From an uncultured Erysipelotrichales bacterium (GTDB lineage Bacteria; Bacillota_I; Bacilli_A; Erysipelotrichales; Coprobacillaceae): a DNA stretch of 52,462 bases. The translations under genes were made by a program, and so were the position numbers. Location of the stretch: NCBI GenBank assembly GCA_964596105.1, contig CAZQRT010000002.1:1-52462 (forward strand), written 5' to 3'. Shown here piece by piece: positions 3,387 to 51,587 of the stretch; the stretch's first letter is position 1, and every line of letters starts with the position of its first letter. A model generated the notes under the pieces. The model was given only the letters and a program-made list of their open reading frames with translations, was not told the origin of the DNA and searched no databases.

Positions 3387-4897
<1,511 letters not shown>

Positions 4898-4898
<1 letters not shown>

Positions 4899-4926
4899 GC
4901 TTCCCGAAAGGGAGCCTTTTTTGTTT
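4898..4926 (+). terminator. rho-independent terminator
   Basis: The hairpin GGCTTCCC-GAAA-GGGAGCC is followed by TTTTTTGTTTT. Confidence 0.75.
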
Positions 4927-4968
4927 TGCCCAAAGCCGGAATATGGTAGAATAAAAAGGGGTGAAAAG

Positions 4969-5910
4969 ATGTTTAATCAAATTTGGGAAATTTTAAAAAA
5001 CGCCCGGCACATCTATCTGTACCGCCATATCAACGCGGATTACGACGCGCTTGGCGCGCAGTACGGGCTTTGGGCTTTACTTAAAAATCTGGCCCCCGTC
5101 AGCATTCTCGGCACGGAGCCGGAAGATTTAAAAGCGCAGATGAAACTGCCGGAAGTTTCCCGGCAGGAACCGGAAGGATCCCAGGGCGAGGTCGCGGTGG
5201 TGCTCGATACCGCCAACCAGGCCCGCATCGACGGCCAGGGCTTTAAGCGCTGTGAAACGCTCATCAAGATTGATCATCACGAGATCGTCGATGAATTTGG
5301 TGATTTTCGCGTTGAGAAACCGGAAGCCGGCAGCACCTGTGAGATCATCACCGCCATGGCCGAGATTCTCGGTTTAAACATAACCGCCCCGGCCGCTGCC
5401 TTTTTATACTTTGGCATGATTGGCGATACCGGCCGCTTTCTGTATGCGCAGACAAGCCCCCTGACCCTGAGGATGGCGGCGCGCCTGCTGGAAACCGGCA
5501 TCGACATCAGCCAGATCTATGAGGCCATGTATCTGCGCGACCGCCATACATTGGCTAGTGAGCGGTATGTTTTAAATCATACCCGCTACGCGAACGGCGT
5601 GGCTTACTTTATCCTGGAAGAAGAGGAACTGGAACAGTTAAACCTGACCCGGGAACAGGCCAGCCGCATGGTGGACCTGTTAGGAAATGTCCGGGAATAT
5701 CACGTCTGGGCGGCGGTCACGTATCAAAAAGAAAGCGGCAAGTACCGCGTCTCTTTGCGCAGCCGCCATGTCGATGTCGCCAAAGTCGCCGCCAGTTTTC
5801 AAGGCGGCGGGCACCGCCTGGCGAGCGGCGCGACCTTAAACAGTTTAAACGAACTGCCGTTATTGATCGCGAAGTTAGAGGAGGCCGTCAAAAATGAGAT
5901 TTCAATATAA
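4969..5910 (+). CDS. nrnA: DHH/DHHA1 family phosphoesterase (NrnA-like oligoribonuclease/pAp phosphatase)
   Basis: ATG 4969 follows AAGGGGTG. DHH motifs are present (HINADYDALG, VVLDTAN, KIDHH, GDTGRF, GGGH). The size is ~313 aa, as for NrnA. Confidence 0.75.
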   Translation: MFNQIWEILKNARHIYLYRHINADYDALGAQYGLWALLKNLAPVSILGTEPEDLKAQMKLPEVSRQEPEGSQGEVAVVLDTANQARIDGQGFKRCETLIKIDHHEIVDEFGDFRVEKPEAGSTCEIITAMAEILGLNITAPAAAFLYFGMIGDTGRFLYAQTSPLTLRMAARLLETGIDISQIYEAMYLRDRHTLASERYVLNHTRYANGVAYFILEEEELEQLNLTREQASRMVDLLGNVREYHVWAAVTYQKESGKYRVSLRSRHVDVAKVAASFQGGGHRLASGATLNSLNELPLLIAKLEEAVKNEISI

Positions 5911-7537
5911 TACCTATTATCCCCGCCCGCGTTTTCAAATGAGAAGAAAAGACACGAAATGGGCGGTCCCGATCGCTTTAGCGGTTGTGGTGTTGCTGTT
6001 TGTGGTCCTGGAGTATTTCTTGTTTATTCCCGTCACCATTCGCAACCCCAATTTCCTGCTTTTTCTCGCCCTTCTGATCTTAGTTTTTGACGCCCTGGTC
6101 TTCATTTTGAAAAGCGGCTTTCAAAAATGGCAGCGTTACCTGCTGTATTTTGCGGGACTTTTGTTTGTCATCGTGATCGCGGGCTCTTTGATCAGCGCGC
6201 CAATATTTCACGCGCACAAGTACCAGCAGCAGCTGGCGATGAACGAGGACGCGGATTTTTATGAGGATATCACCGCCATCAGTTTCAACCAGATTCCCGT
6301 CGTCGACCGCGACAGCGCCACCCGCCTGGGCGACCGCAAAATGGGCGAAATCATGGACTACGTCTCGCAGTTTGATGTCTGGCCCGACTATACCCAGATT
6401 AACTATCACGGCCGTCCCGTCCGCGTTACCCCGTTGGGTTACAGCGGCCTGATCAAGTGGTTCAACAACTTCCGGGAAGGTTTGCCGGCTTATATCATCG
6501 TGGATATGGTCAATCAGGAGGCGGATATCAAGCGTCTCGATGAGAAAATGAAATACTCCGAATCCGACCTGTTTTTCCGCGATGTCAGACGCCATCTCTT
6601 TACGCGATATCCAACCCGGATGTTCGCGGAAGTCTCCTTTGAGATTGACGAGGAGGGCATCCCTTATTATGTCGCCCCGGTTTATGAGTACAAGATCGGC
6701 CTGTTTGGCGGCAAAGATATCGTCGGGGCGGTCCTGCTCAACGCGATCAACGGTGATACGCAGTACTATCCGATTGACGAGGTGCCGACCTGGCTGGACC
6801 GGGTTTATCCGGAAAGCCTCGTCGTCAGTCAGCTCGATAACTGGGGCAAATACCAGAACGGCTTTTTGAATTCCTATTTCGGCCAGCGCGGCGTCTTGAA
6901 GAGCACCGACGGCTATAACTATATTACCATCGATGATGATGTCTATCTCTACACCGGGCTGACTTCGGTTCTCGCCGATGAGTCCAATGTCGGCTTCGCT
7001 TTGATTAACCTGCGCACCAAAGAAGCCAAGTTCTACAACATCCCGGGCGCTGAGGAGTACTCCGCGATGGAGTCGGCGATGGGCCAGGTTCAGGATTTGC
7101 ACTATCAGGCGACTTTCCCGATTTTGATTAATTCCGGCGGGGAGCCGACGTACTTCATGGCCCTGAAGGACAGCGCGGGCCTGGTGAAGCAGTATGCCTT
7201 TGTTTCCGTCACTAACTACAATATCGTGGCGACCGGGGTCAGTGTCGCGGAAGCCCAGAAAAATTACTTCCAGGCTTTAAGCGCGGCCGGCCAGGCGGTT
7301 ACCGAAGGCGAGTTAGTCACGGCGCAGGGCACGGTGACGAGGATCCAGAATGTCGTCGTGGAGGGCAATACCCGGGTTTACTTCAGCCTTGGCGACGGCA
7401 AGGTTTATATCGCCAGTGTCACCCTTGACGACCGTCTGCCGCTTTTGACCGCGGGCGATCAGGTGGAGGTTTCGTATTATCAGACAGAGGGCACCAGCGT
7501 CAGCGTCCAGAGCATCGCGTTTTTAAGTGAGGAGTGA
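5894..7537 (+). CDS. large membrane-anchored protein of unknown function (N-terminal TM bundle plus ~430-aa extracytoplasmic domain)
   Basis: ATG 5894 sits 9 nt after AGAGGAGG and overlaps the nrnA 3' end. Three to four TM helices occupy aa ~20-110, followed by a long soluble domain. Its stop codon lies inside the SD of the response-regulator gene. Confidence 0.7.
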   Translation: MRFQYNTYYPRPRFQMRRKDTKWAVPIALAVVVLLFVVLEYFLFIPVTIRNPNFLLFLALLILVFDALVFILKSGFQKWQRYLLYFAGLLFVIVIAGSLISAPIFHAHKYQQQLAMNEDADFYEDITAISFNQIPVVDRDSATRLGDRKMGEIMDYVSQFDVWPDYTQINYHGRPVRVTPLGYSGLIKWFNNFREGLPAYIIVDMVNQEADIKRLDEKMKYSESDLFFRDVRRHLFTRYPTRMFAEVSFEIDEEGIPYYVAPVYEYKIGLFGGKDIVGAVLLNAINGDTQYYPIDEVPTWLDRVYPESLVVSQLDNWGKYQNGFLNSYFGQRGVLKSTDGYNYITIDDDVYLYTGLTSVLADESNVGFALINLRTKEAKFYNIPGAEEYSAMESAMGQVQDLHYQATFPILINSGGEPTYFMALKDSAGLVKQYAFVSVTNYNIVATGVSVAEAQKNYFQALSAAGQAVTEGELVTAQGTVTRIQNVVVEGNTRVYFSLGDGKVYIASVTLDDRLPLLTAGDQVEVSYYQTEGTSVSVQSIAFLSEE

Positions 7538-7542
7538 CGGTC

Positions 7543-8220
7543 ATGAAATCACGGATCTTATTTGTGGATGATGAAGAGCCGATTCGCGAACTGGTGAGGT
7601 TCTATGTGGAAAAAGAGGGCTTTACCATGCTTGAGGCTGAGGACGGGGTCCAGGCGCTGGAAATATTTGAGAATGAGTATGTGGATCTCGCGATTGTCGA
7701 TATCATGATGCCCCGCATGGACGGCTGGGAACTGGTCAAAAAAATGAAGGCCCAGCGCGATGTGCCGGTCATCATGCTGACGGCGATGGGGGAGTCCAAG
7801 GACAAGCTGCGCGGCTTTGATATCGGCAGCGATGATTATGTCGTCAAGCCTTTTGACCCTGACGAGCTGATGGCGCGGGTGAAGACCATCCTGAAGCGCT
7901 ACAGCATCAATTCGCAAAATATCGTGCAGATCGGCAATGTCACCTTTGACGGCGACAAGTGCGAGGTGATCTATCAGGATCAGGCCATCCATCTGCCTTT
8001 AAAGCAGTTTGAGCTGGTGTTTGAGCTGGCCAAGAAGCCTAACCACATATTCAGCCGGGAACAGCTGATTGAGCGCATCTGGGGCATGGATTACGACGGC
8101 TTTGACCGCACCGTGGATGTCCATATTAAAAGAATCCGCGAGCATCTCGGTTTCATCCCTGATTTCAAGGTGGTCACGGTGCGCGGCCTCGGTTATAAAA
8201 TTGAGGTTACGCCGCAATGA
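7543..8220 (+). CDS. OmpR/PhoB-family response regulator
   Basis: ATG 7543 sits 8 nt after GTGAGGAG. The receiver domain has ILFVDDE...DLAIVDIMMP...K and there is a C-terminal winged-helix domain (VDVHIKRIRE...TVRGLGYK). Confidence 0.9.
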   Translation: MKSRILFVDDEEPIRELVRFYVEKEGFTMLEAEDGVQALEIFENEYVDLAIVDIMMPRMDGWELVKKMKAQRDVPVIMLTAMGESKDKLRGFDIGSDDYVVKPFDPDELMARVKTILKRYSINSQNIVQIGNVTFDGDKCEVIYQDQAIHLPLKQFELVFELAKKPNHIFSREQLIERIWGMDYDGFDRTVDVHIKRIREHLGFIPDFKVVTVRGLGYKIEVTPQ

Positions 8221-9554
8221 AGTCGCTTTACGGCAAATTAGTTTTCGGATTTTTGATCAGCATCTTTTTCGCGTTTTCTCTGGCCGGGTATGTGAGCACG
8301 CAAAATCACCGCGAGCGGCTGGAGGAACTGACGGTCAACCGCATCACGGAAAGCGCGCAGAGTTTAGTGAATCTGCCTCTGGAAGCGGGCGGCATGGAAA
8401 GTTATGCCCGGGCAACCGGCATCGGGATCGCCGTGGTTCACGGGGATCAGGTGGATTATTACGGCACGGAGATGGCGGGCCTGACGGATGACAAGATTCT
8501 GGACATGGCGTCCAGTCCCGGGGCGCAAAAAGACGGGGAGAGCATGTTTTATGCCGCCCCGGCGGCCGGCGGGGCGACGCTGGTGCTGCGCAAGAGCATG
8601 CATGAGGAAAACCGGATTTTTGAGCAGTCGCTCATGTACGCGCTGGGCAGTATCTTCATCTGCGGCACGGTGGTGTTTTTAATCATCGCCAATTTCATTG
8701 TCAAACCGGTGCAGCGTCTCACCAGAGCCACGAAAGAGCTGACCAAGGGAAATTATAATGTCGAGGTGAAATACCGCGGCCATGATGAACTGGCTGTGCT
8801 GGCCGAAAGCTTCAATACCATGGCCCGGCGCCTTTTAGAGCTGGAGGAGAACCGCCAGAAGTTTATTTCCGATGTGTCCCACGAGTTTCAAACCCCGCTG
8901 ACTTCCATTCAGGGTTTCGCGAAGATTTTAAAGTCGGAGGAGATCAGCAGCGAGCAGCGGACGCGGTACGCCAATATTATTCTGGAACAGTCCAAAAGGC
9001 TTTCGATTTTATCGAAGAACATGATGCAGCTGACGCTATTGGAAAATGACGACATCAGGCTGGAAAAAAGCCGTTATTCGCTGACGGCGCAGCTGGCCGC
9101 GATCGTCGAGATGCAGACGGTTGACGCCAGCCGGAAAAATCTTGATCTCGTGACCGATTTTCCCAAGTCTGATGTTATGATCGTGGCCGACAAGGACCGC
9201 ATGGAGCAGGTTTTCATCAATCTCATCAGCAATGCCATCAAGTATACCATGGAGGGCGTGATCACGGTGCGCCTGCGCCGCTCTCTCAAGGAGATCGAGG
9301 TGCAGGTGGAGGATACCGGCATCGGGCTGACTCCGGAAGCGCAGAATCATATTTTTGACCGCTTTTACCGCGCCGACAAATCGCGCTCCATCCAGGGCAA
9401 CGGCCTCGGTCTGGCGATCGTGAAGCGCATCATCGATCTGCACGGGTTCAAGATCAATGTGCAAAGCCAGCCGGATGTCGGATCGATTTTTTCGGTGATC
9501 ATTCCCGGCGAGGGCATTCATCTGACGATGCGCGGTAAAAATCAGGAGTCTTAG
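8217..9554 (+). CDS. sensor histidine kinase (2 TM, HAMP, HisKA, HATPase_c)
   Basis: It overlaps the regulator gene by ATGA. It has the H-box SHEFQTPLTSI, an N-box NLISNAIKY and G-boxes DTGIGL / GNGLGLAIV. Confidence 0.9.
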   Translation: MKSLYGKLVFGFLISIFFAFSLAGYVSTQNHRERLEELTVNRITESAQSLVNLPLEAGGMESYARATGIGIAVVHGDQVDYYGTEMAGLTDDKILDMASSPGAQKDGESMFYAAPAAGGATLVLRKSMHEENRIFEQSLMYALGSIFICGTVVFLIIANFIVKPVQRLTRATKELTKGNYNVEVKYRGHDELAVLAESFNTMARRLLELEENRQKFISDVSHEFQTPLTSIQGFAKILKSEEISSEQRTRYANIILEQSKRLSILSKNMMQLTLLENDDIRLEKSRYSLTAQLAAIVEMQTVDASRKNLDLVTDFPKSDVMIVADKDRMEQVFINLISNAIKYTMEGVITVRLRRSLKEIEVQVEDTGIGLTPEAQNHIFDRFYRADKSRSIQGNGLGLAIVKRIIDLHGFKINVQSQPDVGSIFSVIIPGEGIHLTMRGKNQES

Positions 9555-39323: not shown

Positions 39324-39836
39324 ATGGATTTTAACGAGGTGATCCGCGAGCGTTATTCCTGCAAGCGTTTTTCCAACAAGCTGCTGGCAAAAGAAAAGTT
39401 ACAGGCGATCCTGGAGGCCGGCCGGCTGGCTCCTACCGCCAAGAATCTCCAGGAGCAGCATATCTACATCGCCCAAAGCGAAAAAGCTTTGGAAATAATC
39501 GACAGCGTGACGCCATGCCGTTATCAGGCCCCTTGCGTACTGGTGGTGGCGTATGATCAAAGTCATGTTTTCACCTATCCCGGCCAGCGCTATCAGTCCG
39601 GGGCGGAGGACACGGTCATTGTCGCGACCCACATGATGCTCGCGGCGCAAAACGCCGGCGTGGACAGCTGCTGGATCAACAACTTTGATCCCGATGTCTT
39701 AAAAGAGCGTCTCCAGCTGCCGGAAAATGAGAAGATCGTGATGCTTCTCGATCTCGGCTACGCGGATGAGGGCGCGGGGCCTTTGCCTAATCACTCTAAA
39801 AGGAAATCTTTGGAAGAAACAGTGACTTGTATTTAA
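39324..39836 (+). CDS. nitroreductase family protein
   Basis: The N-terminus I.ERYSCKRF plus LEAGRLAPTAKN is the nitroreductase fold signature. The protein is 170 aa. Confidence 0.8.
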   Translation: MDFNEVIRERYSCKRFSNKLLAKEKLQAILEAGRLAPTAKNLQEQHIYIAQSEKALEIIDSVTPCRYQAPCVLVVAYDQSHVFTYPGQRYQSGAEDTVIVATHMMLAAQNAGVDSCWINNFDPDVLKERLQLPENEKIVMLLDLGYADEGAGPLPNHSKRKSLEETVTCI

Positions 39837-39857
39837 GCGGCTTTGGCCGCTTTTTTA
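39837..39857 (+). terminator. rho-independent terminator
   Basis: The hairpin GCGGC-TTTG-GCCGC is followed by T6. It merges into the polypyrimidine tract. Confidence 0.6.
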
Positions 39858-39957
39858 TTTTTTCTTCTTTTCTTCTTCTTTTTTTTACTTCTTCTAGTTT
39901 TTTTCTTTTTTTTTACTTCTTCATTCTTTCTTTTTTTCTTTTTCATTTTTTTCATTA
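39851..39957. repeat. ~105-bp polypyrimidine (T/C) tract on the plus strand with internal repeats
   Basis: The stretch is almost exclusively T and C. The unit TTTTTTTACTTCTTC occurs twice (39881-39895 and 39908-39922). TTTTTCAT occurs twice (39939-39946 and 39948-39955), and TTCTTCTT iterations are present. Confidence 0.9.
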
Positions 39958-39981
39958 TAAAAAAAAGCCCGTCCGGGCTTT
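39958..39981 (-). terminator. rho-independent terminator of the EIIB-ROK gene
   Basis: The minus strand reads AAAGCCC-GGAC-GGGCTTT followed by T8. Confidence 0.75.
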
Positions 39982-41362
39982 AGTGATGACTAGCCAGCAC
40001 ACACAGCGTCATCTCTCCGATGAGCATGTATTCTTTCAGGCTGGAAATGCGTTTGATTTCCGGCTGGTATTCTTTCGGGATCATTTTGGAGACGCCCTCT
40101 AAAATGGCCTTCTCATCAACCTGGTTCGGGGTGGAGTAGAGGACTGCCTCGGGACCCAGTAAGGAGATGATGGAAGTGATGACTTTGGTGAGGACATCGG
40201 TGGTGCCTTCGGCGCTGCCGGTCATGGTTAAATAGTCTTCTTTAAGATTGAGCGGCATGTACTGGACTTCCCCGGCGACATTGTGATAGCCGCGGATCAG
40301 CTGGCCGTTAAAGATGCTGCCCACTCCCGCGTAGCTGGATTTGGGCTGGAAGATGAAAGACAAAGACTCATATTTTCCCTGCGACACATAGATGCCGACC
40401 GCGATCGAGTTGACGTCATTATCGAGATAGAACGTTTTATTGTATTTTCTTTTCAGCATGCCCAAAGCGTCAAAGTTGTACATATTGGCCATGGACAAGT
40501 AAACCTTGCCGTCGTTGATGATGCCCGGCATCGATATCCCGATGAGTTCGATATCGGGATGAGAGACGAAGACGACATCGAGAATATCGCAGATGTCCTC
40601 AAAGTCAATCCGCGTTTTCACAACTTCCTGGTCCATTAAGATCGCGTTATCCTGGTCGTAAAGACGGTAGTCGATGATATAGCGGGTATGCATGTTGATG
40701 ACGGACAGGACGAGAATCTTCTCATGATGCGAGAGCTTTCTTTTTAAAGACAGCGGGGTGGAATCTTTGTGGTGCTGATCATTCAGATCGCGGATAAATC
40801 TTAACAGCTCGACACAGTCGTAGCGGGCGAAAACAGCTGAAGGAATGACCGCGATCTCCACATCCGGATATTTTTTCTCGAGCTCAGCCCGAAGATAAGC
40901 CACCTGCGGGGCCAGAAGGACAATGGTCATGCCTTTAATGCGGCTGTCGATATGACTGATCGAGGAGGCGCTAAAGTGGAAGGGCACATCAAACAACTCT
41001 ACTGTCTCATTTAAAGAAACGGCGAAGTTGCTGGTGGTATAGCCGCCCGAGCAGCATAACAGCACCTGGGTGATATTTTTCTTGTTTGTTAAACATTCGA
41101 CCATTTCCTGATACAGGGCCACGGCATGATTCAGGGTGCGCATTTGAAAATGCAGATAAAAATCGTTACTGCCGGTGGTTTTATCGGTAATGATTAATTC
41201 GATGATGTGGTTCGGGTTAAATGTGATGCGCCCCACGCTGGAAGGCGTCTCAAGGACAATATCTTCGTCATCTTCGGAAACTGTGACTAGACTGTCATAA
41301 GGCTGATTTAAAATCCACTGATGGAAAACAGACATGTAAATATCCTGCAGAAATTCATCCAT
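39980..41362 (-). CDS. three-domain fusion: unknown N-terminal domain + PTS EIIB (lactose/cellobiose type) + ROK-like sugar-kinase-fold domain (degenerate)
   Basis: Residues ~97-190 (VLLCCSGGYTTS ... IVLLAPQVAY ... IAVIPSAVF) parallel cellobiose-type EIIB and retain the phospho-Cys. Residues ~215-460 carry ROK blocks (IGISMPGII.DG, YLDNDVNSIAVG, AGVGSIFNGQLIRGYHNVAGEV). The N-terminal DxGGT loop is replaced by SVINMHTR and the CxCGxxGC zinc motif is absent. Confidence 0.7.
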   Translation of the reverse strand: MDEFLQDIYMSVFHQWILNQPYDSLVTVSEDDEDIVLETPSSVGRITFNPNHIIELIITDKTTGSNDFYLHFQMRTLNHAVALYQEMVECLTNKKNITQVLLCCSGGYTTSNFAVSLNETVELFDVPFHFSASSISHIDSRIKGMTIVLLAPQVAYLRAELEKKYPDVEIAVIPSAVFARYDCVELLRFIRDLNDQHHKDSTPLSLKRKLSHHEKILVLSVINMHTRYIIDYRLYDQDNAILMDQEVVKTRIDFEDICDILDVVFVSHPDIELIGISMPGIINDGKVYLSMANMYNFDALGMLKRKYNKTFYLDNDVNSIAVGIYVSQGKYESLSFIFQPKSSYAGVGSIFNGQLIRGYHNVAGEVQYMPLNLKEDYLTMTGSAEGTTDVLTKVITSIISLLGPEAVLYSTPNQVDEKAILEGVSKMIPKEYQPEIKRISSLKEYMLIGEMTLCVLASHH

Positions 41363-41900: not shown

Positions 41901-41916
41901 CTGTCCGCTTTTTTTA
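41885..41916. terminator. bidirectional rho-independent terminator
   Basis: The hairpin CGGACAG-TAG-CTGTCCG is flanked by A6 upstream and T7 downstream. It lies between the convergent mutT and helicase genes. Confidence 0.8.
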
Positions 41917-44751
41917 ACCATGAACGATGTAGTCATAAAGATCTTCCGCGACCGGGGTTTCCAGCTGATAGTGAATCTCAAAAGCCGGCTTGCCGGTTTG
42001 CGGCATGATGACCGGCTCCGGTTTTCCTATGGCCCGCATCTCGCCCAGGAAATAGAACTCCTTCGCCTCTTTGTCATCTTTGTTCTTGCGCACAAACAGG
42101 TAGATTTTGACATCCCGGTATTCCGGTTCGCTTTTATAGATGCGAATGGCATCCGCGCTGGTCACGGCGCGATTCGTTTTCGATAAAGCCACCAGCTCGC
42201 CGCGGTTCAAAAAACGGTCCTCGTAAGCGATGGCGTCACTTTCTTTATCGTAATTGATGAAGACCGGCAGCGTTTTCGTCTCGTCATTGTAAAGGTAGCC
42301 GCCGATGCTCTGGGCGTTGATGTTTTTCTTCCAGTTTAATAACAGACAGACATCCTCATATGTATATTTCTGACCTAAGACGAAGGCCGTGTCGCGGTAG
42401 TGATGCTGATACGATTTGTGAAAGTTAGCCATGGCATAGGAGATAAGTTCTGAAATCATCTCAGAAAACGAAGTCTCTTCAAGCATTTCCTCAAACTTTG
42501 GATGGATGAACCACTCATCATCTTTACTGACAAGAAAAACGCAATTCTGGTATTTGGGCTGATCCATGGTTTTCGCGAACTGATTGGTCAGATTGCCATA
42601 CACAGACTGCAGGACGGTGTCATTCACCTCATAGTCATGCAGCTGGGAAACTAACTGAGATTTGATATGGTCCTGTTTTTCTAAAAGCAGCTTTAACACA
42701 AGCCATTCGTGCGGGCGTTTGCCGGCGCTGAGCTTTTTTGACAGAAACCTGATGACCTCGGCTTTTTCCGGGGATAAACGAACATTATACTCCGGCTCTT
42801 TCGCGACTAAAAAATGATAGTAAGAGCCCCATTTCATGATGAATTTCGCGGCGTCGATTTCCCCGTAGCGGTCAAAATCAAGCAGAGACGGAATATGGCC
42901 CAGCTTAAACTTCAAATTCTGATAGGCGTCGTCAAGAAACTTGGCCTCCATGGTATTGGCCCTGTCAATCGCCTGGAAGATTCGCGCTTTGGAAATCTCA
43001 TCGAAATGGATACTGGAATAGCCGGGAATCATCTGCGCCTCCTCGCTGATGAAGCGCCGCATGTTGTCCTTGTTGTAGGAGCGGTCGCCCGACAGCGCGA
43101 CGGGAATGAGAAAGTTCTGGGTGTAATTGCCGATAAAATCCAGCACCATGACATAGTCTTTGCCGGGATACTTGCGCAGCCCCCGGCCCAGCTGCTGAAT
43201 AAAGATGATCGCGCTTTGCGTCGGCCGCAGCATGATCACCTGATTGATTTCCGGGATGTCAACACCCTCGTTGAAGATCTCCACGGTGATGATATAATCC
43301 AGGGGATCGGGATTGTCGTGATCCTTCGTCAGGCGGGCGATACAGGCTTCCCTTTGGGCCTGACTACTGGAACCGTCCAGAAACACAGTGCGCCAGCCTT
43401 TCTGATTGAAAAGCTTCGCCAGTTCTTTTCCCTCGTCTTTGCGGCTGACAAAAATCAGCCCTTTCACGCGCGGGCCGCTGTAACCGTAGTATTCCGCCTG
43501 CCGCATGATGTAGTCCGCCCGCTTTTCTCTGACTAAGGTCTGAAAAGCGGCAAAACCGGTCCTCTCATCATAAGTTTTCTCATCCAGGGTCAGATCGGTG
43601 ATGCCGTAGTAGTGGAACGGGCACAAGAGATCTTCCCGCAAAGCGGCCTGCAGGCGGATCTCGTAGACGATATTGTGATCAAACAGACTGAAAATATCGA
43701 AACCGTCGGTCCTTTCCGGACTGGCCGTCATGCCCAGCCAGAAATCCGGCTGGAAATAAGCCATGATATCGAGATAGCTGCCGGCCCCGGCGCGGTGGAC
43801 CTCATCGATGATGATCGTATCAAAATGATCCCTGGGAAAGTGCGCCCGGATGTCCGGACGGGCCATGCTCTGCACCGTGGCGAAGATAAAATCGGCGTCA
43901 TAGTCATGACGGGAGCCGGAAATTCTTCCGTAAGTTCTCGTGTTTAAAAAGATTTTCTGATAAGTTTCCATGGCCTGCCTGGCGATCTGCTCGCGGTGCA
44001 CGAGAAACAGCATTCGTTTAGGCATATACGTGCGCAAGGCGAACGCGCTGGCATAGGTTTTGCCGGTGCCGGTCGCCGAAATGAGCATCGCGCGATGCTC
44101 CCCGCGCCTTCTTAAAGCCTGAAAGCTGGCAATGAAATCGGTCTGCATTTTGTTTGGAGTGAGAACCGGACGGGCTCTCTGTTTCACCTGCCGGCCGTGA
44201 ATCAGGCTGACCGACTGATAGTAGAGGCGGGTGTAATCGTAGCGGACATCCTCATAGGAAACAGAATTCGGGGAATTCCACAACCGCTCGAACTCATCGT
44301 TGATCCGCTTCGCGAACGGATGCTCTTCGCCAAGGTTCATCCCGGCATTCCACTCCTGGTTGCTGCTTAACGCGCTGGCCGTCAGATTCGAACTGCCGAC
44401 GATGATATGAAAGGCGCCGGGGTAGCGGAAGATGTAGCCCTTGGTGTGAAATCCGTCATGAGGCGTGCTCTGATACATTTTCAAAGAGATGTTTTTCAGT
44501 CCCGCCAGTTTATCCAGGGCTCTGGGGTCACTGAAGGACAGGTAGTCGGTCGTCAGAATCCTTCCCGGGACGCCCTTTTCCTCCAGCTCCTTGAAGACGC
44601 CAAGCAGCGGGGCCAGGCCCGAGGCGCTGATAAAGGCGACCGTTATATCAAAGGCCTGGCAGGCGCTTAATTCTTTCATCAGGGCGCTTAAAACCTTGAT
44701 GCCGTGCCGGTACTCATTGACCAGTAAACGAAACCGGGCGGTCTCTTCCAT
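41914..44751 (-). CDS. PLD-family nuclease / SF2 (ResIII-DEAH) helicase / DUF3427-like C-terminal domain fusion protein
   Basis: ATG 44751 sits 8 nt after AGGAGG, and the track GTG at 44760 overlaps the SD. The N-terminal HxK motif is GFHTKGYIF...VGSSNLT. The helicase has Walker A SATGTGKTY, motif II IIIDEVH, motif III MTASP and motif VI QQLGRGLR. The C-terminal ~190 aa (GGY...LPVFINY...IYLFVRKNK...FYFLGE) resemble DUF3427 as I remember it. Confidence 0.8.
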   Translation of the reverse strand: MEETARFRLLVNEYRHGIKVLSALMKELSACQAFDITVAFISASGLAPLLGVFKELEEKGVPGRILTTDYLSFSDPRALDKLAGLKNISLKMYQSTPHDGFHTKGYIFRYPGAFHIIVGSSNLTASALSSNQEWNAGMNLGEEHPFAKRINDEFERLWNSPNSVSYEDVRYDYTRLYYQSVSLIHGRQVKQRARPVLTPNKMQTDFIASFQALRRRGEHRAMLISATGTGKTYASAFALRTYMPKRMLFLVHREQIARQAMETYQKIFLNTRTYGRISGSRHDYDADFIFATVQSMARPDIRAHFPRDHFDTIIIDEVHRAGAGSYLDIMAYFQPDFWLGMTASPERTDGFDIFSLFDHNIVYEIRLQAALREDLLCPFHYYGITDLTLDEKTYDERTGFAAFQTLVREKRADYIMRQAEYYGYSGPRVKGLIFVSRKDEGKELAKLFNQKGWRTVFLDGSSSQAQREACIARLTKDHDNPDPLDYIITVEIFNEGVDIPEINQVIMLRPTQSAIIFIQQLGRGLRKYPGKDYVMVLDFIGNYTQNFLIPVALSGDRSYNKDNMRRFISEEAQMIPGYSSIHFDEISKARIFQAIDRANTMEAKFLDDAYQNLKFKLGHIPSLLDFDRYGEIDAAKFIMKWGSYYHFLVAKEPEYNVRLSPEKAEVIRFLSKKLSAGKRPHEWLVLKLLLEKQDHIKSQLVSQLHDYEVNDTVLQSVYGNLTNQFAKTMDQPKYQNCVFLVSKDDEWFIHPKFEEMLEETSFSEMISELISYAMANFHKSYQHHYRDTAFVLGQKYTYEDVCLLLNWKKNINAQSIGGYLYNDETKTLPVFINYDKESDAIAYEDRFLNRGELVALSKTNRAVTSADAIRIYKSEPEYRDVKIYLFVRKNKDDKEAKEFYFLGEMRAIGKPEPVIMPQTGKPAFEIHYQLETPVAEDLYDYIVHG

Positions 44752-44771
44752 GGCGCTCACCTCCTGGTTTT

Positions 44772-50745: not shown

Positions 50746-50770
50746 CAAAAAAAGAGCCAAAGCTCTTTTT
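50746..50770. terminator. bidirectional rho-independent terminator
   Basis: AAAAAAAGAGC-CAAA-GCTCTTTTT lies between convergent genes. Confidence 0.7.
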
Positions 50771-51587
50771 AGATCAGGTTTAAATACTGGAAAGCGTTCC
50801 AGAGGCCGTCTTCATCAACCCCGGTTGTCACATAATCGGCCGCCGCTTTGCATTCCGCGGTTCCCGAGCCCATCGCCACGGCGTAACCGGCGGCTTCAAA
50901 CATCGGAATATCCACCGCTTCATCACCAAACGCGATCGCGTCTTCTTTCTGGCATCCCAGATGATCAAGCAGTTTCTGGACGGAATATTTTTTGTCGATG
51001 CCGGTAACTCCGACATCGCCGTGCTTCATCGGTCCGCCAACTCCCCAGGTACCGTGTTTTAAATGCGGGAATTTTTCTTTTGTTCTTTCAAAATCCTCAT
51101 CGCTGTTCAGGCAGTAGGAGATTTTGTTGACATCATCTTTATCAAAATCATGGCCGTAAGTCATGCCGTCGAGAAATTTCAGGACGCCTTCCATATTTAA
51201 GGATCTTTGTCCTCCGGCCTGATAGCGGTCGAGGCATTTCTGGCGGTAGCCCTCGGACGGGTAGAGGCCGCTGTTGGCTTCCAGATAGAACTCAATGTCA
51301 TTTTCCCGAAACCACGCCACCAGCGCTTTGACATCTTCCAGGGAGATCTTTTGATGCATGACGATCTCGCCGTGATCTTCGATATAACTGCCGTTGCCGC
51401 CGATCATGCCGTCCAGGCCGATGCTCCAGATATCGTCATAAACCTCGGCTTTGCTGCGGCCGGTGCAGATATAAACGCGGTGACCGTTGGCCCGCGCCTG
51501 ACGGATCGCCCGCACCGCGCTTTCCGGGGCTTTGTTGCCTGATCCGCAAAGGGTTCCGTCGACATCGATAAATAAAATTTTAGACAC
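50769..51587 (-). CDS. Cof-type HAD-IIB family phosphatase
   Basis: GTG 51587 sits 6 nt after GGAGGGA. HAD motif I is LFIDVDGTL, motif II is ICTGR, and motif IV is GDEAVD. Confidence 0.8.
   Translation of the reverse strand: MSKILFIDVDGTLCGSGNKAPESAVRAIRQARANGHRVYICTGRSKAEVYDDIWSIGLDGMIGGNGSYIEDHGEIVMHQKISLEDVKALVAWFRENDIEFYLEANSGLYPSEGYRQKCLDRYQAGGQRSLNMEGVLKFLDGMTYGHDFDKDDVNKISYCLNSDEDFERTKEKFPHLKHGTWGVGGPMKHGDVGVTGIDKKYSVQKLLDHLGCQKEDAIAFGDEAVDIPMFEAAGYAVAMGSGTAECKAAADYVTTGVDEDGLWNAFQYLNLI

Follow-up and report, generated by a model that had tools for sequence, protein, structure and literature searches.

A conserved EIIB–ROK fusion family of Erysipelotrichales with a TriTu-like N-terminal domain, and its candidate role as a cytoplasmic sensor of the phosphotransferase system

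The ROK-family repressor Mlc is captured by the EIIB domain of PtsG, a component of the sugar phosphotransferase system (PTS). This EIIB is of the glucose class, and its fold bears no relation to that of lactose/cellobiose-class EIIB. In the activators MtlR, LicR and ManR, the cysteine of an EIIB-like domain is phosphorylated by PTS components, which controls their activity. Here we describe a gene in which a lactose/cellobiose-class EIIB and a ROK domain are joined in one polypeptide. It lies on a 52,462-nucleotide stretch of DNA (hereafter the window) from an uncultured Erysipelotrichales bacterium (assembly GCA_964596105.1, contig CAZQRT010000002.1, positions 1 to 52,462) and encodes a protein of 460 residues with a further, N-terminal domain. 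The architecture does not correspond to a named regulator family: no NCBIfam or Pfam model describes the three domains together, and literature searches found no description of them. We tentatively favour a reading of this protein as a cytoplasmic PTS signal integrator, gated by phosphorylation and by a sugar or sugar-phosphate, that would act through protein contacts and would be neither an ATP-dependent kinase nor a DNA-binding repressor.

Fold and Pfam score place the protein in the ROK superfamily, and it carries a bona fide cellobiose-class EIIB inside it. With ChbB/CelA-type EIIB proteins (PF02302, TIGR00853; structures 1h9c and 2wy2) it shares the fold class, a cysteine at the end of the first beta-strand, the C-x-G-x-(S/T)-T-S P-loop, the (L/G)PQ(I/V) strand and an alignment over the full length of the domain; it differs in that the domain is internal to a 460-residue soluble protein, is only about 30% identical to canonical EIIBs and is accompanied by no EIIA or EIIC genes. 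With ROK kinases (NanK, NagK, BglK, GlcK; PF00480) it has in common the ASKHA/ROK fold, the NDxN motif and two conserved Glu residues, that of the GE motif and a later one, but it has no DxGGT, no GGG and no Cys-rich zinc motif, and Tyr stands for His in GExGH. The PRD activators (MtlR, LicR, ManR) likewise hold an EIIB-like domain within a PTS-controlled regulator, although here there is no PRD, Mga or helix-turn-helix (HTH) domain (Pfam detects only ROK and PTS_IIB), a ROK domain serves as the sensory partner and the EIIB belongs to the cellobiose type.

Mlc–PtsG and the ROK repressors more broadly (Mlc, NagC, XylR, Lmo0178) are comparable in that the function of a ROK sensory domain is tied to whether a PTS EIIB is phosphorylated, but the winged-helix DNA-binding domain and the zinc site of these repressors are absent here. 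An earlier note on this DNA, made from its letters and open reading frames (ORFs), had suggested, with Mlc and PtsG as background, that the protein may be a Rosetta-stone version of an EIIB–ROK partnership. The parallel does not carry over: since the EIIB of PtsG belongs to a different fold class, the comparison is a weak analogy and not a case of homologous partners having been fused. A precedent for a ROK protein that acts without DNA binding is MecR2 (XylR-derived; PDB 4ija). Its ROK fold can do without a DNA-binding domain: MecR2 binds another regulator, the repressor MecI, directly and works even with its HTH deleted (PMC3406092). It has, however, neither an EIIB nor a TriTu-like domain and is specific to the mec locus.

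The fusion proposed in the earlier note is real, and it defines a conserved three-domain family. When 5.8 billion proteins were searched, about 120 full-length clusters came back (about 99% query coverage, 33–46% identity), nearly all of which match both PF00480 and PF02302 and which the databases name only "ROK family protein." Alignments of 26 and of 97 members show conservation in each of the three segments, the larger alignment being the source of the column counts given below. An AlphaFold2 model built from the 97-sequence alignment reached a mean predicted local distance difference test (pLDDT) of 88.4 and a predicted template modelling score of 0.77, and its only weak stretch is the linker of about 20 residues at 196–215. 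Among 1.84 billion cluster representatives (50% identity clusters), a profile of the N-terminal domain retrieved 355 proteins at E ≤ 1e-3 and 204 at E ≤ 1e-10. The domain almost always stands at the N-terminus of proteins of about 460 residues, and it occurs almost only in the layout of N-terminal domain, EIIB and ROK. No other architecture was convincing, and the shorter matches were truncated gene calls of the same layout.

Surveying one genome per GTDB species, we found 339 loci that encode relatives, of which the best 80 were looked at. Nearly all of these belong to Erysipelotrichales (Thomasclavelia, Longibaculum, Massilimicrobiota, Faecalibacillus, Catenibacterium, Stoquefichus, Coprobacillus, Eggerthia, Sharpea and Fimiplasma), along with a few metagenome-assembled genomes (MAGs) labelled Hungatella or Clostridiaceae whose homologs match from residue 13 on. 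Two to four paralogs per genome are common within the 80 loci, as in F. faecis (L046, L059, L075) and a Thomasclavelia MAG (L013, L070, L078, L082), and the window copy is the most divergent seen, with no more than 45% identity to any relative. NusA encoded in the window shares 62–75% identity with NusA proteins of Coprobacillaceae, which makes the host a member of this same order, of higher GC (52%). Erysipelotrichales such as Thomasclavelia ramosa, Faecalibacillus, Catenibacterium and Longibaculum occur in abundance in the gut and have been linked to diet and to host metabolism; how they regulate carbohydrate use is poorly understood.

The EIIB segment was identified most clearly by NCBIfam, with matches to TIGR00853 (3e-12) and to the ChbB equivalog PRK10499 (4e-9). 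Pfam PTS_IIB (PF02302) is passed by most relatives, and the window copy falls below its gathering threshold (E 0.0047; 18 against 23.6 bits). Profile comparison with the PDB returned the solved ChbB structures 1h9c and 2wy2 at about 1e-6 over residues 100–188, and the alignment pairs VLLCCSGGYTTS with IYLFCSAGMSTS and IVLLAPQVAY with VVLLGPQIAY, in agreement with the two motif pairs and the retained cysteine of the earlier note. In the AlphaFold2 model, residues 98–195 show the alternating beta-alpha pattern expected of EIIB(Cel). The P-loop is close to invariant across the family, with C104, G107 and T109 present in 97 of 97 members and T110 in 93, and A151-P152-Q153 is found in 96. Cys104 is the predicted phospho-acceptor, because it is invariant while the neighbouring Cys103 is Ser in 55 of the 97 relatives. 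Given this invariant P-loop cysteine, phosphorylation-dependent behaviour of the protein is plausible.

The ROK domain is recognized by Pfam above the gathering threshold (PF00480, E 1.5e-10, 41.5 against 22.9 bits, residues 234–372). Foldseek searches of the PDB returned NanK (6jdc) at 3e-13, and also Lmo0178, Mlc, the Mlc/EIIB complex and MecR2 (1z6r, 3bp8, 5f7p, 4ija); the nearest ROK profiles are those of the kinases BglK, NanK and NagK rather than of repressors. A profile of the family's ROK part aligned with NanK 5nck at 7e-14, placing NDVN opposite NDVN and GEVQY opposite GEFGH. In the same alignment the family's "ivlsck" lies opposite NanK "ILGGGV," and the DxGGT segment is left unaligned. 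The earlier note had read SVINMHTR for DxGGT, GEVQY for the GExGH motif and no CxCGxxGC in the window copy; these departures hold family-wide, and the GGG motif is lost as well. The window copy has (LSVINMHTR) where DxGGT would be, and the family consensus is LS-(I/L)-(I/F)-R-N-x-x-R, an Arg/Lys-rich hairpin with R223 in 69, R227 in 58 and R233 in 83 of the 97 members. S/C-x-L takes the place of the adenosine motif GGG, only A-G-x-G is left of the phosphate-2 motif, and position 368, the His of GExGH, is Tyr in 77, Phe in 16 and His in one. There is no CxCGxxGC motif in the 97-member alignment and, since no conserved Cys follows the GE motif, no zinc site.

Other parts of the ROK active site are kept. 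The Asn and Asp of NDxN contact the sugar and provide the catalytic base in ROK kinases, and here N315 and D316 are present in all 97 members, N318 in 96, G364 in 97, E365 in 96 and E385 in 84. Judged by these motifs, the ROK domain is degenerate for ATP and zinc, with its predicted sugar-contact and catalytic-base residues strictly kept. One could still suppose an ordinary ATP-dependent ROK sugar kinase that is regulated by the fused EIIB, as the ROK fold, the retained NDxN and GE motifs and the kinase-like nearest profiles might suggest. Such activity is unlikely, however, because the domain lacks every nucleotide-binding motif, from the absent phosphate-1 loop to the replaced GGG and the reduced phosphate-2 motif, and lacks the zinc site in all 97 sequences; as an account of the protein we regard it as very improbable indeed.

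The N-terminal 96 residues, modelled alone, gave a mean pLDDT of 90.4 and a fold of one helix, five strands and a second helix. Foldseek returned a single strong match, chain 7zhm_C (probability 1.0; template modelling (TM) scores 0.62/0.67; E 1.3e-3), aligned over 86 columns of its 87 residues. This is TriTu of Salmonella Rhs1 TreTu (PF24689), an immunity protein whose flat five-stranded antiparallel sheet carries two helices on one side and docks on its partner with the exposed sheet. The domain described here resembles it in its five-stranded antiparallel sheet backed by two helices and its length of about 90 residues, and differs in its sub-threshold score, its own invariant motif FYLHFQ...HA, its fusion to EIIB and ROK and the lack of a toxin gene. 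Pfam TriTu gave weak, near full-length matches in four of 40 members (best E 4.6e-4), and the window copy scored 12.5 bits against a threshold of 27. The window neighbours are a nitroreductase and a NUDIX hydrolase, and no toxin-like neighbour recurs across the related loci. Because the Pfam threshold is missed and no toxin gene is nearby, membership of the TriTu family is not established and the match is one of fold. The earlier note had held that the first 95 or so residues match nothing its author recognised and do not look like a winged helix. The second statement is upheld by the model, by the TriTu match and by profile searches that detected no HTH or other DNA-binding family; the first holds in so far as no Pfam or NCBIfam family scores above threshold, but it overlooked the immunity-protein fold. 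An apparent resemblance to PPR-like helices in designer-PPR PDB entries was discarded, as a 14-residue helix had been multiplied by the repeats and no single stretch was significant.

Conserved positions in this domain include H71 and F72, which are invariant, and E55, Q73 and H79, which are nearly so. Its net charge averages −6.2 across the family and is −10 in the window copy. These features bear on the idea of a transcription factor, in which the N-terminal sheet would be a novel DNA- or RNA-binding surface and EIIB and ROK its regulatory modules, comparable to the PRD activators MtlR and LicR. An N-terminal effector or output domain followed by sensory domains does resemble the order in ROK repressors, multiple paralogs in standalone genes are typical of regulators, and Foldseek also returned weak matches of the domain to MRP1/MRP2, which bind RNA through a sheet (probability about 0.75, TM about 0.39). 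On the other hand, the acidity of the domain argues against DNA binding, its exposed conserved residues include Glu55, His71 and Gln73 and not Arg or Lys, no DNA-binding family was detected in it, and the top structural match is a protein that binds protein. Nucleic-acid binding is thus unlikely, and we give the transcription-factor account a low probability. We conclude that the N-terminal domain is a putative protein-docking module and not an HTH.

To characterize the surroundings of the family, we clustered the neighbours within ±4 genes across 79 related loci and checked the cluster identities with Pfam. The gene is mostly standalone, and no neighbour cluster occurs in more than 17 of the 79 loci, so that there is no universal operon partner. 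RpiR regulators (HTH_6 + SIS) are found in 17 loci, in 12 of them within ±2 genes and in seven adjacent to the gene; within ±4 genes there are also Cof-type HAD proteins (10 loci), canonical EIIBs (seven), PHP phosphatases (seven) and GH1 proteins (six). Such associations are partial and phylogenetically non-independent. Some arrangements are operon-tight: a free EIIB ends 8 nt before the gene, which is followed at 0 nt by a PHP gene, in L072 and L075; an EIIB gene overlaps its end by 4 nt in L080; and a Cof-HAD gene does so in L077 and L085. Through these loci the family also has a looser tie to the handling of sugar phosphates.

The T. ramosa ortholog (P0097; L003/L004 8001–9625), a protein of 428 residues present on hundreds of contigs, adds a different kind of evidence. 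About 40 residues are missing from its fused EIIB through a fixed in-frame deletion, which removed the region of the LLAPQ strand and kept the Cys loop. A canonical EIIB gene of 103 residues (CCAGMSTS) lies 27 nt downstream, followed by an RpiR gene and a NUDIX gene on the other strand. We rejected the possibility that this free EIIB is a fission product, since it is canonical and shares only about 30% identity with the fused domains. The deletion next to a free EIIB, together with the orphan EIIBs that overlap or abut the gene elsewhere, supports a functional link between the N-terminal domain/ROK core and EIIB, whether fused or free.

The same loci speak to the simplest account of the EIIB domain, namely that it is a working EIIB of a cellobiose-class PTS that serves an EIIC encoded elsewhere, with the ROK and N-terminal domains in accessory or regulatory roles. 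Its intact active-site loop and its ChbB-like character over the whole domain are what one would expect of such a subunit. Yet the gene was never found beside EIIC or EIIA in 79+ loci, canonical free EIIB genes coexist with it and are sometimes adjacent, T. ramosa tolerates the deletion in the fused EIIB, and the fused domains have diverged from canonical EIIBs to the extent given above. A transport role therefore strikes us as quite improbable, somewhat more so than the transcription-factor account.

Catalysis without ATP deserves more attention. In a PTS-driven soluble sugar phosphotransferase, phosphorylated EIIB (EIIB~P, at Cys104) would take the place of ATP, docking where the nucleotide would be and donating to the hydroxyl of a ROK-bound sugar, for example a beta-glucoside or amino sugar, that is activated by Asp316. 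The protein would then be a cytoplasmic kinase dependent on phosphoenolpyruvate, and the TriTu-like domain would bring in the upstream donor or control access to the site. Several findings suit this proposal: N315-D316 is invariant while the ATP motifs are all lost, the P-loop of the EIIB does not vary, kinases supply the nearest ROK profiles, the two domains are covalently tethered through a flexible linker about 20 residues long, Arg/Lys-rich residues replace the phosphate-1 hairpin, and GH1 genes of the 6-phospho-beta-glucosidase type occur near some paralogs and elsewhere in the window. DhaKLM offers a conceptual likeness. We nevertheless consider the proposal improbable, though less so than the transcription-factor account. 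We know of no precedent for transfer from EIIB to sugar outside EIIC, and non-catalytic ROK regulators such as Mlc retain the Asp of NDxN too. Translational coupling to sugar-phosphate-type phosphatases (PHP, Cof-HAD) would make a futile cycle, the conserved N-terminal domain would go unexplained, and the T. ramosa copy has become fixed despite the loss of half of its EIIB. If the proposal is correct, this would be the first EIIB-driven soluble sugar kinase and a new kind of PTS terminal acceptor, extending the PTS phosphorelay from membrane transport to cytoplasmic substrates.

We return to the signal integrator, which we favour tentatively over an enzyme. Because the sugar-binding ROK domain has lost its ATP site, the sensing of sugar supply seems the most likely function when set against that of an ordinary kinase. 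As long as the cognate sugar is missing, a PTS EIIA(Cel) or an orphan EIIB would phosphorylate Cys104; once incoming sugar draws the phosphoryl flux, Cys104 would be dephosphorylated. A sugar or sugar-phosphate would bind in the ROK cleft, a phosphorylated ligand being favoured because basic residues stand where the ATP loop was. Both inputs would set the conformation of the protein and thereby control the binding of a partner at the beta-sheet face of the N-terminal domain. The likeliest partner would be a transcription factor, for example one of the RpiR/SIS regulators whose genes lie close by in several clades, with the neighbouring phosphatases as an alternative, and the paralogs may provide different sugar specificities. 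The earlier note had likewise proposed a phosphorylation-gated sensor in place of a kinase. This survives in part: an ATP kinase is unlikely with its motifs lost, and the phospho-acceptor Cys is invariant, but an EIIB~P-driven kinase retains the small probability we gave it.

Several observations weigh against the signal-integrator reading. No partner was identified, none of the neighbours being universal, and the enrichment of RpiR is modest (4.7% of genes at ±1 compared with about 2.4% at ±3/4), with several of the RpiR loci orthologous and not independent. The window copy has no RpiR, EIIB or phosphatase as a neighbour. The TriTu match is one of fold only, at the Foldseek E value given above and below the Pfam threshold. 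Finally, the conservation of the catalytic-base Asp316 fits catalysis equally well.

What we describe is a lineage-specific, paralog-expanded family in which a PTS phospho-acceptor appears to be wired to a ROK sugar-binding domain and to a family-specific docking domain. It points to an undescribed PTS-dependent signalling route, unlike those of PRD regulators, Mlc-type sequestration or HPr/CcpA. For the entries now called "ROK family protein," the analysis supplies a name, a domain map and candidate partners (orphan EIIB, RpiR and the PHP/Cof phosphatases). The features of the window copy are collected in Table 1.

Table 1. Position of the gene, its domains, key codons and flanking signals in the window
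Feature	Coordinates	Strand	Basis
Complete coding sequence: N-terminal domain, EIIB, linker and ROK; 460 residues plus stop	39980..41362	(-)	ORF list, homologs, AlphaFold2 model
N-terminal domain, residues 1-95: acidic alpha-beta5-alpha, TriTu-like fold, FYLHFQ and HA..L..EM motifs	41078..41362	(-)	Conservation, domain model, Foldseek
PTS EIIB domain, lactose/cellobiose class, residues 97-195	40778..41074	(-)	NCBIfam, ChbB PDB chains, secondary structure
Codon of Cys104, predicted phospho-acceptor, aligned with ChbB Cys10	41051..41053	(-)	1h9c alignment, re-translated codon
Linker, variable, mildly basic, residues 196-215	40718..40777	(-)	pLDDT about 58, residues 198-200 below 50; mean net charge +2.7
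ROK-fold domain without ATP and zinc motifs, residues 216-460	39983..40717	(-)	Pfam, Foldseek, profile alignment to 5nck
ILVLSVINMHTRYII, hairpin where ROK kinases hold DxGGT	40673..40717	(-)	Arg-rich family consensus; unaligned with kinases
N315-D316 codons, retained NDxN motif	40415..40420	(-)	97/97 invariant, aligned to NanK NDVN, codons re-translated
E365-V-Q-Y368 codons in place of GE-x-GH; Glu kept, zinc-/sugar-binding His replaced by Tyr	40259..40270	(-)	Alignment columns, codons re-translated
Promoter-like site TTATCA-17-TATAAT, 5' of the start codon	41379..41407	(-)	Consensus scan only, 10/12 matches; such sites no commoner than in shuffled sequence
Intrinsic-terminator-like hairpin followed by T-run, GC stem, beginning at the stop codon	39964..39981	(-)	Sequence scan

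The window copy looks monocistronic, since a ribosome-binding site (GGCGGTGAG) and the promoter-like site precede it and the terminator-like hairpin begins at its stop codon. Its neighbours encode an aldose 1-epimerase, a nitroreductase, a NUDIX hydrolase, a PLD-helicase-DUF3427 protein and RecJ, and the wider region is core chromosome (polC-nusA-infB-rbfA ... recJ-apt-relA). The window ORFs that were tested include no PTS EIIA or EIIC, in line with the earlier note, which had also remarked on a low GC content. The difference is there but marginal (0.477 for the gene, 0.52 for the window), and it is not meaningful: GC at third codon positions, 0.636, lies inside the 0.567–0.725 of the neighbours. 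For this reason, and with the region being core chromosome, we rejected a foreign island as the source of the low GC.

Downstream of the gene, the intergenic stretch 39840–39960 holds a long purine-rich tract (A/G on the minus strand) of very low complexity, which causes a strong AT-skew dip in the composition profile. It sits between convergent terminator hairpins at 39835–39852 (+) and 39964–39981 (-). Two genes elsewhere in the window belong to the same protein families as neighbours of some paralogs: a GH1 glycosidase at 3390–4898 (+), 35 kb from the gene, of a family that includes 6-phospho-beta-glucosidases, and a Cof-type HAD phosphatase at 50769–51587 (-), 9 kb away.

Among the related loci, two further associations recur. 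A 142-residue P-loop protein (GQPGSGKS; weak AAA_22, Zeta_toxin and TniB matches) is encoded about 100 nt downstream on the same strand in 14 of the 79 loci (L015, L019, L037 and 11 others), within the Longibaculum/Massilimicrobiota clade; the association may reflect plain synteny or a functional partnership. At four loci in MAGs labelled Hungatella or Clostridiaceae (L017, L034, L064, L071; about 4300–5950), genes on the same strand for a calcineurin-like metallophosphatase and then for a conserved 253-residue protein precede the family gene, the gaps being 1 nt and about 35 nt. The 253-residue protein has no Pfam match, no relative in the PDB and no significant BLASTP similarity to a verified RpiR, and we withdrew the label "RpiR2" first given to its cluster and dropped it from the RpiR counts.

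One protein departs from the usual layout. P0232 (332 residues; L088 1770–2768, also L089 and L090), present on four contigs, joins the N-terminal domain and half of an EIIB to a SpoIIE/PP2C tail and an HATPase_c_2 domain of anti-sigma-kinase-like type. It is probably a rearrangement product, because an IS91-type transposase adjoins it in L088 and only half of the EIIB is kept; it could also be a true alternative output for the N-terminal domain/EIIB module. In L089 a STAS gene lies downstream.

Two other ORFs of the window stood out. A 547-residue ORF at 5894–7537 (+) matches no Pfam family at E ≤ 1e-5, and its end overlaps the start of a gene pair for an OmpR-type response regulator and a histidine kinase (7534–9554). 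At 41914–44760 (-), between the NUDIX gene and recJ in an otherwise housekeeping region, a protein of 948 residues combines an N-terminal PLD-like nuclease, a ResIII/SNF2-type helicase core and a C-terminal DUF3427, an architecture that resembles restriction/defence systems.

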